From assembly GCA_043819795.1 (NCBI GenBank), contig JBDREN010000230.1, positions 1 to 55,336 of the forward strand: a stretch of 55,336 bases of DNA, given 5' to 3'. The position numbers and the translations under genes were made by a program. The notes under the pieces are model-generated. The model was not told the DNA's origin, did not search any database, and was given only the letters and a program-made list of their open reading frames with translations. Positions 52,584-55,336 of the stretch are shown in pieces. Source of the DNA: Elusimicrobiota bacterium. Its GTDB lineage: Bacteria > Elusimicrobiota > Elusimicrobia > UBA1565. Position 1 is the stretch's first letter. Each line of letters opens with the position of its first letter.

Positions 52584-52670
52584 CCGTGTAGGATAGCGAA
52601 TTCGGAGCCGGGTCGGCGCCAAGGACCCAAGAAGGTCAAGGAATTCGCAAAAGTCAAAGCCTGACGCCGT

Positions 52671-53269: not shown

Positions 53270-54640
53270 TCACTCGACGAGCTCGAGCCCTGACGCCGCC
53301 GAGGCGACGGCCGGGGCCGCCCTCAGGTAGCCGACGGCTGACTCTCCGAGGTTGCCGGCCGCGTCCCGGGCCGTGGCCTTGACCGCATAGAGGACGCCGG
53401 GCTCCGGCGCGAAGCGGGCCCGCGGGCCGCCGTCGCCGGGGACCTCCCCCCAGGCGGACCAGCCGTCCGCCGAGCGGCGCGCGTGGAGGAATCGGAAACC
53501 CTTCCTGTCCACCCCGCTGGCCGCGTCCACGGCCGAGGCGGAAAGCTCGACGGCGGGTCCCAGGGCGAGAGTGGCCGCTTCCGGGTCCGCGGACGCCGGG
53601 TAGGAAAGCGTCACTCGCGGCGGGGCCTCGTCCACTTGGCGGTAGAAATAGACGAAGAGCGCGGCCGCGCTCCGGATCGCCAGCGGGATCAGCGCGTCGC
53701 CCTCCTCGTCAAGCTCCTCCTGCGTGAATCCTCCCGCGCGGCGGCGGCCGGCGTCCACGGTGCCGTTCCTCCCGCGCAGGGGCCCGCTCCCGGAGCCCGT
53801 GTCATAGCGCAGCGTGACGGTGTCCGTCCTCAGGAACAGGTCGTAGAGCGTTTCGAAGGAGTCCACTGGCCCGGACGGTACCTCCGACCAGCGCGGGTAG
53901 GCGCTTTTAATGAACTCCTCGTAAACAGCCGAGCCCGGAAGCAGGTGCGCCCACCGGTGCGCGTGGGCGGGAACGGTCAGGTCCTCGAGCAGGTGGGCGA
54001 CGTGGCCCAGATACCAGTAGGCCGCGTTCTTCTCGCCCGCCCGGTACAGGGCCACCGCGCCCATGCCCCGCTTCCCCGCCAAGCGGCCCCTGCCGTCGCC
54101 CCAGGCGCGGTCGTATTTCCCGTCGAGGCCGTAGCCTCCGGTGAAAAACTTCTGGGCCCGGTTGACCGCGCTGTCGCTGCCCGGGATCCCCGCGAACGGC
54201 CCCTTGCGGCAGTCCCAGAAATGCGCGAGGTTGGGGATCACGTCGCCGAACGGGTTCAGGCGGGGCTGGTCCTCGTCATAGGTACCGGCCAGGACCGTGT
54301 CGTGCGCGCCGGCCGGGGGCTTGTTGCCGTCGAACTCCCCGATGTAGCGCGAGAGCTCCCCTCCCGAGAACTGCGCGGCGTACATGAGGTACGCCTGCCG
54401 GGTGAAGAACATGTGGGCGATGGGATTGTGCAGGTCGCGGACGGGGGCATCCGTGCCGCCGGAGGGATCATCCTCGGCGGGAAGGGGGCGTCCGGGAGCG
54501 TCCGGGACGGGCGCCTCGGCGCCCGCGTCGACCGTGGCCCAGCCCGCCTGGAAATACCGTTCCCGAAGCGATTGCTCCCGGGACTCGGCGCCGGCCGCGC
54601 ACAAAAGCAAAAGACACGCGGCGCAGGCCACCCGTTTCAC
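53270..54640 (-). CDS. Secreted Zn-dependent phospholipase C/P1-nuclease-like protein with a C-terminal Ig-like domain
   Basis: AGGAG RBS with GTG start, signal peptide. AH.F, YDED, HFWD, YLGHVAHLLEDLTVPAH, YEE, then DEAPP...ARDAAGN. Confidence 0.78.
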   Translation of the reverse strand: MKRVACAACLLLLCAAGAESREQSLRERYFQAGWATVDAGAEAPVPDAPGRPLPAEDDPSGGTDAPVRDLHNPIAHMFFTRQAYLMYAAQFSGGELSRYIGEFDGNKPPAGAHDTVLAGTYDEDQPRLNPFGDVIPNLAHFWDCRKGPFAGIPGSDSAVNRAQKFFTGGYGLDGKYDRAWGDGRGRLAGKRGMGAVALYRAGEKNAAYWYLGHVAHLLEDLTVPAHAHRWAHLLPGSAVYEEFIKSAYPRWSEVPSGPVDSFETLYDLFLRTDTVTLRYDTGSGSGPLRGRNGTVDAGRRRAGGFTQEELDEEGDALIPLAIRSAAALFVYFYRQVDEAPPRVTLSYPASADPEAATLALGPAVELSASAVDAASGVDRKGFRFLHARRSADGWSAWGEVPGDGGPRARFAPEPGVLYAVKATARDAAGNLGESAVGYLRAAPAVASAASGLELVE

Positions 54641-54799
54641 GCCGGATCTCCTAGCATCCGCATGCCGATTATATTGTGCTTTATTGCACTTTCGCGGTCA
54701 AGAGAGGCGTCACTCATTAGAGGTCCCCGCGTCAATGGGCAATAGAATCCCAGCCCACAGGCCGTGGTTGTTCGCCATTACGCCTATTCTCTGCCGCTG

Positions 54800-55128
54800 T
54801 TGAAGGTGAATCCGCATCCGGGTTCTCTTTGATCTAGCGTCGGCACGAAGCCGCGCCAGTCACTCATCAGGATCAAGGCTTCGGCGATAATGCTGCCGTC
54901 GCCCCTGCCCTCTGCTCGAGGGCCCAGAAAACCTTTGGTACCCTGCCGCGTGCCCATTTGGATGGCGGACCATGCCGCCGACAGATTCATGGCTTACGAC
55001 TTGCGTCGAGCCAACGCCTAACTGGTTCACGGCCGAGGCGTCTTCGCCTAAAACGGCGGTGGAGGAAGCGGCTAATCAGACGTGTTGGTTTTTCCAACGC
55101 CCTTGCCGAGCTCGCCTCCCCCACCTAA
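54800..55128 (-). ncRNA. Putative bridge/seek RNA of the IS110 element
   Basis: Series of stem-internal loop-stem hairpins downstream of the transposase stop. The 9-mer ATGAGTGAC (54867-54859) is identical to the element end (54717-54709). Confidence 0.65.
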
Positions 55129-55132
55129 ATCT

Positions 55133-55336
55133 TTACGCAAACGCTCGCGCCTCATCGAATAGCACCTGGTCTTTAAGTACGTGATAGCAGGCGCGAGCCA
55201 GCTTGTGGGCGACCGCCTTGATGGCAACGATCCCGTTGGTCTTGGCCTTCTTCCGCTGATAAAATCGCCGGCTGCGTTCGTTGTAGCGCACGGCAAAATG
55301 CGCCGCTTCGAAAAACGCCCAGGCCAAGTATTTGTT
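55133..55336 (-). CDS. IS110-family transposase/recombinase, C-terminal part (5' end outside the window)
   Basis: NKYLAWAFFEAA..A.R......FYQRK..K.....AIKAVAHKLARACYH.L, typical of the Transposase_20 C-terminal helices. Confidence 0.88.
   Translation of the reverse strand, partial: NKYLAWAFFEAAHFAVRYNERSRRFYQRKKAKTNGIVAIKAVAHKLARACYHVLKDQVLFDEARAFA

Follow-up and report, generated by a model that had tools for sequence, protein, structure and literature searches.

A putative guide RNA with a second target-type loop next to a branched donor loop in the right end of an IS1111-type element

Towards its end, the window (the whole 55,336-nt stretch of Elusimicrobiota DNA analysed here) carries an IS1111-type right end from the ISGsu4-like clade of the IS110 family. 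This right end appears to encode an RNA of the bridge/seek type with the order [loop A], linker, [loop B plus multi-branched donor loop], that is, three predicted modules and not four. Sequence comparison marks loop A as the loop that selects the insertion sites. For loop B we propose that it pairs with the flanks of an integrated copy, probably to excise it; we give this reading of loop B a probability of about 0.47, slightly below even odds. The features are collected in Table 1.

Table 1. Features of the element's right end and of the adjoining DNA (window coordinates).
Feature	Coordinates	Strand	Remarks
IS110-family DEDD recombinase gene, 3' end (67 codons and stop)	55133..55336	-	cut by the contig end
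Loop A module, putative target-binding loop with 13-bp outer stem	55058..55125	-	stem covariation; covariation of guides with flanks
First guide of loop A; complement of the right-flank top strand	55097..55106	-	
Second guide of loop A, with match to the left flank, TG core copy and AT handshake	55075..55085	-	
Loop B module, second target-type loop	54943..55035	-	closed by 55035-55028 with 54952-54943; small hairpin 54979-54964
Loop B first guide	55014..55023	-	the 3-4 bases nearest the core follow loop A and the right flank
Loop B second guide, core copy TG, handshake position TC	54980..54990	-	
Donor-domain 5' strand (third loop of the initial annotation), in first-guide position	54927..54936	-	partly complementary to core G and left end
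Two branch hairpins of the donor multiloop	54875..54923	-	54923-54907 (third hairpin of the initial annotation) and 54905-54875
Left-donor guide: copy of right-end terminus, core TG, handshake AC	54859..54869	-	
Hairpin after the donor guide, A-rich linker, 3' closing strand	54821..54858	-	hairpin 54858-54835; closing strand 54827-54821
-35-like hexamer and right sub-terminal inverted repeat	54719..54735	-	hexamer 54735-54730; repeat 54728-54719
Right-end terminus and core dinucleotide TG	54711..54718	-	terminus 54718-54713; core 54712-54711
Right flank (host DNA) of the window insertion	54701..54710	-	

The recombinase fragment in the window is 85% identical to a complete 339-aa copy on contig C90 of the same genome, and the two elements share 88.5% DNA identity over 628 nt. 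A copy on contig C120 represents the same variant as the window gene fragment (100% identity over a 141-nt overlap), and several end fragments of the same element type are found elsewhere in the genome. The C90 recombinase matches PF01548 and PF02371 and scores 180.7 bits against NF033542 (cut-off 140). In C90 numbering, of which the window holds the last 67 codons only, residues D8, E55, D93, and D96 are kept in 137-139 of 139 relatives. S259 is kept in 137 of 139 and aligns beside the SG motif of ISCro4, but the next residue is N and not G; it would be the catalytic serine of the Tnp domain.

The left end comprises ≈80 nt and the right end 420 nt, with a long non-coding region 3' of the gene. 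The boundary is seen from six right ends of this genome, which agree up to the core TG and then diverge within a few bases. The 10-bp complement of the right sub-terminal repeat is present in left ends of the same variant (C120, C143, and C202), and the relatives have lineage-specific matching sub-terminal repeats, as judged by eye. A -10-like hexamer (consensus match only) lies 18 bases from the -35-like one, across the end junction. The short left end, the 420-nt right end, the 10-bp sub-terminal repeats and the TG core together give the IS1111 layout (PMC11187229; PMC11208160). Plasmid records named ISEc11, IS4321 or ISPa11 were absent among the matches listed (60 of 131).

Several observations concern the surroundings of the elements in this genome. 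On contig C142 (10797-10596) the recombinase 3' end runs into unrelated DNA, the entire right end being missing. Tandem duplications of ≈9-18 bases of the right flank directly follow four of the six right ends (C90, C194, C55, and C53), and in C194 and C90 the repeat unit re-forms a target-like site. The left flanks on C48, C63, C174, C120, C143, and C202 have a common host motif of ≈20 bases beyond the guide-read bases. A similar motif with no element inserted is found in the window at ≈52640-52665, and the target may be a host repeat. The window also contains a 456-aa frame (53270-54640, minus strand) with a signal-like start and an H-x-x-x-H-x-x-x-D stretch. This frame gave no Pfam match at E 0.1; we take the stretch to recall zinc phospholipase C/P1 nuclease proteins.

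Two scans for relatives gave 160 loci with 50-84% protein identity (the best 80 of 578 and the best 80 of 592, confirmed), which together with three copies from this genome make 163 records. Records entered the alignment when they had a donor guide and 300 nt or more of right end. This left 140 right ends and excluded 23 records (17 with little or no right end and 6 with no donor guide). By eye, four of these six contain A and B, one contains A and half of B, and one contains A only. Guides and flanks were parsed from the alignment, with a B parser that preferred T after the core. The module counts were taken from the alignment parse, since a loose regular expression gave too many modules and profile HMMs missed diverged ones (at 12 bits they found 117 of 140 complete). 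Counts of empty target sites in the genome were not comparable between the loops and were left out. The right-end RNA had no Rfam match at E up to 1, and viral contigs gave 0 matches to the donor-loop pattern. A single-sequence fold (z -3.0) mispairs the B and donor domains, and the comparative structure was used instead.

Across 19 close relatives the consensus fold contains 83 pairs; two-sided changes are seen in 29, and 96.8% of cells pair compared with 37-49% for slid partners. Loop A is a self-contained hairpin, and the loop together with its outer stem (55125-55113 with 55070-55058) shows two-sided changes in 9 of 15 pairs. The sequences quoted for the loops in the initial annotation are found at the minus-strand positions it gave. 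The scaffold that it saw as common to A and B also holds up: the repeat plus its matching downstream motif arose in only 13 of 2000 shuffles, and the scaffold recurs in relatives. The 8-mer repeat taken alone is at chance level (longest repeat of at least 8 in 380 of 500 shuffles). Loop B is built like A, with a first guide, TGG, an inner hairpin, CCA, a second guide and a core copy.

The outer stem first assigned to loop B was wrong on its 3' side, where CATGGTC is the variable loop of the small hairpin in Table 1. The 5' strand of B pairs instead with 54952-54943, as seen from covariation across 135 right ends. The three best pairs of this closing stem have a mutual information of 0.94-1.11 bits and are paired in 84-90% of cases (44-52% expected), and 7 of its 11 pairs show two-sided changes. 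Loop B thereby adjoins the donor domain. The third hairpin, which had been described as a further guide loop, corresponds to the 5' strand plus one branch of the donor-binding multiloop. It does not vary together with targets (z 0.5 and -1.6, n=105), and the two branch hairpins have two-sided changes in 4 of 6 and 3 of 9 pairs, respectively. As donor-binding bases lie in a multi-loop in many IS1111 orthologues (PMC11208160), this hairpin is covered by known design. What stands from the initial annotation is that the RNA has one guide-type loop more than the described one-target, one-donor design: 137 of the 140 right ends have three modules, and not exactly two guide loops as in an IS621-type bridge RNA. 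The first guide has two registers (L007, L095, L104, L155, L018, L062, and others), its last base pairing with the core G in some elements and with the first flank base in others.

The donor guide follows the right-end terminus in all non-consensus cases at two positions (11/11 and 7/7). The donor handshake AC is found again as RT+1 and RT+2 of the right flank, which are matched in 92% and 95% of cases (n=102). The 5' strand of the donor domain has on average 6.0 of 9 Watson-Crick pairs with the left end in the main clade (n=117), and its counterpart in a sister clade has 6.5 of 9 (n=23). The same strand pairs with the 3' closing strand, with compensatory changes in several lineages (L038, L029, L157, L070, L021, L052 group). 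In variant rows it fits its own RNA partner better than swapped ones (5.35 compared with 4.57 of 7, n=23) and also its own left end (4.84 compared with 4.17, n=19). Descriptions of this strand as purely a left-end guide or purely a scaffold strand were each dropped, since the data support both contacts, and the strand may switch between the RNA partner and the left end.

The guides of loop A vary together with the flanks at 13 positions in about 100 relatives, which points to A as the target-binding loop. Its first guide matches RT+1 to RT+8 above a permuted null (z 3.7-11.2, n=101). The second guide matches LT-1 to LT-5 (z 8.6-11.8, n=106) at rates of 0.96, 0.69, 0.76, 0.83, and 0.75, the permuted null being 0.54, 0.34, 0.40, 0.42, and 0.40. 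The handshake AT equals the first two bases of the left end, and where its second base is off consensus (19 cases, from few lineages), that base agrees with the left end in 17. In 11 elements the core copy of A is CG, and CG is found at every readable junction of each; the core copy of B stays TG in all 11. The top-strand match lies 5' of the bottom-strand match, which is the guide order of the IS1111 group. In sequence comparison, loop A chooses a site by ≈5 left bases, a YG core and ≈8 right bases. Its handshake matches the left end and that of the donor loop the right flank, an insertion-favouring setting.

The initial annotation had suggested that A and B encode two target specificities, and B does share the scaffold of A while differing in its distal guides. 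The flanks of this element type tell against the suggestion. Both flanks are available for 79 elements: A is the better fit in 65 of these and B in 5, with 9 ties, and the mean fit is 10.7 (A) and 8.5 (B) of 15. One of the 79 (L064) fits B better by 3 bases. Of the distal flank bases that A cannot read even with wobble, B matches 69 of 311 (null 26%), and of the corresponding proximal bases it matches 1 of 21 (null 13%). The two classes of insertion sites expected from A and B are not seen, and B accounts for the flank bases missed by A no better than chance. Counted as Watson-Crick matches over 14 half-sites in this genome, A leads at 11, B leads at 1 and 2 are level. As the core-proximal bases of B also converge on those of A and do not diverge (see below), we regard the regular use of A and B as two independent specificities as largely refuted and the least probable of the readings considered here.

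The single half-site with B ahead is the window's own right flank (A 6/10 and B 8/10, or 8 and 8 when G-U wobble is allowed); the left flank of this insertion lies off the contig. This flank could suggest that B acts as a low-specificity back-up loop for rare insertions at core-proximal matches, useful in hosts that lack the site of A, and B is indeed a complete target-type loop that is close to the commonest target of the family. But the window's B shares its first guide with L188, whose A and flanks are both different, and the extra matches may therefore be coincidence, so that the flank is at best a weak hint of B-guided insertion. The back-up reading also predicts no reason for B to follow the changes in A, and the distal count given above shows no excess of B-explained bases. 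We consider it improbable. The L188 copy has an internal deletion in its gene.

A multi-target RNA does apparently exist in one relative, by way of a duplicated loop A. In L006 and L185/L202 (G012:C62), which come from two different genomes, loop A is present twice before B, and the guides of the two copies are unrelated. In the L185/L202 genome, ends identical to the element (119/119 and 71/71 nt) border four half-sites, with left and right matches to A1 (5/5 and 8/8) and to A2 (5/5 and 8/8). Site classes that match A1 and A2 are thus found on four half-sites in one genome, which indicates that true two-target RNAs exist in the family, and a duplicated loop A yielding two target classes is a point in favour of two specificities in one RNA. 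The full copy has the left flank of A1 and the right flank of A2, and the contig-end pieces have the reverse; these pieces do not show their own loops. L189 and L200 belong with this case. Either an assembly collapse of two copies or recombination between copies would give such crossed flanks. The two-A layout is one element type among ≈150. Clustering of family members was seen elsewhere: L191 (G012:C204) consists of two related elements tail to tail, the right flank of each being the end of the other, and G014:C71 has four right ends and two left ends of the family within ≈16 kb.

Loop B matches the flanks above the null only near the core (LT-1 to LT-4 and RT+1 to RT+3), apart from a small excess at RT+6 (z 2.7-2.9) that is without explanation. 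The same region is shared with A. The A-B guide identity (n=136) is 0.89 at L-1 (null 0.54) and 0.71 at L-2 (0.38) on the left, and 0.87 at R+1 (0.61), 0.99 at R+2 (0.88) and 0.90 at R+3 (0.69) on the right. It fades to the null distally (0.40 compared with 0.38 at L-5, and 0.32 compared with 0.31 at R+8). Common bases are far above the null at L-1, L-2, and R+1 to R+4, although the values at R+1 and R+2 may be inflated as for both loops the donor handshake served to choose the register on the right side. In 47 cases A is off consensus at L-1, and B carries the same base in 34 of them (1.1 expected); the corresponding counts are 42/73 at L-2, 20/30 at R+1, 8/9 at R+2 and 15/29 at R+3 (expected co-changes of 0-3.7 over these five positions). 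The handshake TC of B equals neither the left end nor the right flank; it is never AT among 136 parsed loops, and its agreement with left end or right flank does not rise above the null rate.

On the protein tree, independent pairs at L-1 changed in the same direction by 12.6 to 0.2 of 18 (median p 0.0002), and this is the only position that would survive correction for ≈50 tests. The signal is weak at L-2, R+1, and R+3 (p 0.016-0.03 uncorrected), and R+2 had too few events. In 11 held-out guide pairs, some of them kin, the proximal A-B identity is 0.78 compared with 0.40 (0 of 5000 permutations) and the distal identity 0.32 compared with 0.28 (p 0.18). The initial annotation had named invariant scaffold as the outcome that would speak against several guide loops, and for B this is not what we find, as its core-proximal guide bases change together with those of A across independent lineages. 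By sequence comparison, selection keeps B matched to the core-adjacent bases (2 left, 3-4 right) of the site specified by A, the distal bases being ignored. B can lag behind: L001, L058, L083, and L091 keep a consensus B while A has changed. In the C90 variant, B mismatches its own sites at RT+3, yet this variant has 4 left and 4 right ends in the genome, and a full proximal match by B is therefore not required for spread.

The likeness of B to A might also be a product of gene conversion or common ancestry rather than of pairing with DNA, with B being a protein-binding or folding scaffold from an old duplication. A/B recombination does occur, as seen from the hybrid loop in L063, and B often keeps the consensus sequence. 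However, the common bases form two separate patches, and the stretch between them (inner hairpin and distal left guide) is not homogenised, with median lengths of 13 and 23 in the two loops and a correlation of 0.04 (n=135). The co-change moreover recurs on independent branches. We consider a mere scaffold very improbable, only a little less so than two independent specificities.

Loop B has been kept in all but three of the aligned right ends, the exceptions being L044 (B hairpin deleted), L063 (A/B hybrid) and L015 (both lost). The complete chromosome with L044 has an intact copy that lacks B as well as a truncated, broken one, and L063 and L015 have one match each; all three are uninformative on mobility. 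In L218, L210, and L217, A plus part or all of B are lost. The sister clade, at 32-34% protein identity, has the same module order, and in its 26 donor domains we found the A motif in 22, the B motif in 22 and both in 19. By eye, both first guides there end in the same five bases, which fit the different right flank of that clade, and its B has no AT handshake (a pattern-based count being limited by the pattern used). In L244-L247 and L252-L284 of the sister clade the inner hairpin of A is expanded to 70-100 bases, with guides and handshake kept. None of the module motifs was found in L248-L250 (28-29% identity).

Our preferred reading, that B reads the flanks of the integrated copy, rests on the core co-change, the distal indifference, the missing handshake and the strong retention. 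Loop B would bind a recombinase dimer and base-pair with the flanks of a copy already in place. Since every copy sits in a site picked by A, B would need only the core-proximal bases. Having no insertion-locking handshake, B together with the adjoining donor loop might form the complex that starts excision or circle formation, and A, a separable 5' hairpin like a short seekRNA, would drive insertion. In IS621 the direction is set by the handshake, which favours the reaction that gains pairs once the strands have been exchanged, and excision is suppressed by the natural handshake (PMC13626964). ISEc11 needs correct target-derived flanks to form circles (PMC11187229).

Some points speak against a role in excision, a role proposed by analogy with IS621, a different subgroup. 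The handshake of B is unlike the right flank, where an excision-optimised one would match, and the donor loop still has its insertion-favouring handshake. A dedicated excision loop may also not be needed, as donor-loop-only complexes of IS621 can excise (PMC13626964; 10.64898/2026.08.31.748434). Loop B could instead be an insertion helper at the site of A, providing a second target-reading dimer for the second strand transfer, target capture or proofreading of core-adjacent bases. The same A-B covariation fits, as does the arrangement with A as a separable hairpin and B next to the donor loop. In CazIS110-1, a TBL-only RNA and the full-length RNA cooperate in direct transfer (10.1101/2025.10.25.684509). 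A helper should, however, leave a trace in the flanks that A cannot pair, and the proximal count (1/21) gives none; it would also be expected to carry the left-end handshake which insertion uses in IS621, and B has no such handshake. We regard a helper role as rather unlikely, but as the most serious competitor to the reading of integrated flanks.

More generally, and still tentatively, these elements may represent a deep IS1111-type lineage with a long-reach loop with handshake for choosing sites and a short-reach loop lacking one for excision, the direction being set by the loop engaged. The site-picking loop would be a plug-in hairpin, and its duplication would give natural two-target elements. 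How IS110/IS1111 elements exit under an insertion-favouring guide RNA is a live question, as IS621 excises ≈2,000-fold less well than it inserts (PMC13626964), and a core-tracking second loop with no handshake, kept down to ≈32% protein identity, provides a sharp natural test. For tool building, re-targeting may need edits in two loops, and loops of different directional bias could be mixed. The two-A relative suggests that multiplexed targeting from one RNA can occur naturally.

The element type, the guide order, the handshake and the branched donor region are already known. The seekRNAs of ISEc11, ISPa11, ISKpn4, and ISPst6 likewise come from a non-coding region 3' of a 339-aa DEDD transposase, in elements with sub-terminal inverted repeats and natural re-targeting between relatives, and they too have the top-strand match 5' of the bottom-strand match (PMC11187229). 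Their junction promoter would have its counterpart in the -35-like and -10-like hexamers seen here. The long seekRNAs of 145-172 nt are described with one target loop (PMC11187229), whereas the conserved structured region found here spans ≈330 nt and contains a branched donor loop besides two target-type loops. The IS621 bridge RNA is similar in its target and donor loops with two guides each (the left-end guide in the donor loop here being a candidate), its 2-base core and its handshake dinucleotides, which match the partner DNA after strand exchange (PMC11208160; PMC13626964). In contrast to IS621, the RNA here lies in the right end, the guide order is reversed and the core is YG (PMC11208160), and there is an extra target-type loop with no handshake (PMC11208160; PMC13626964).

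ISGsu4, ISGsu5, ISShfr7, and ISShwo5 form one cluster in Durrant's table, and the six RNAs pictured in the same paper belong to other protein clusters according to the supplementary table (PMC11208160). No RNA description of the ISGsu4 cluster was found in the literature searched by name. Plasmid relatives with 56% identity, annotated as "IS110-like element ISGsu4 family transposase", have the same layout of A, B and donor loop (L251). The paper texts searched contained no description of a second target-type loop that is fixed and shadows the first, nor did the searches list a paper on two natural target loops. A further parallel is CazIS110-1 (Sun et al., 2025), which also has a stand-alone target loop beside a target-plus-donor RNA (10.1101/2025.10.25.684509). 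There both RNAs are processed from one target loop (10.1101/2025.10.25.684509), whereas the element described here encodes two different loops that differ in handshake and reach.
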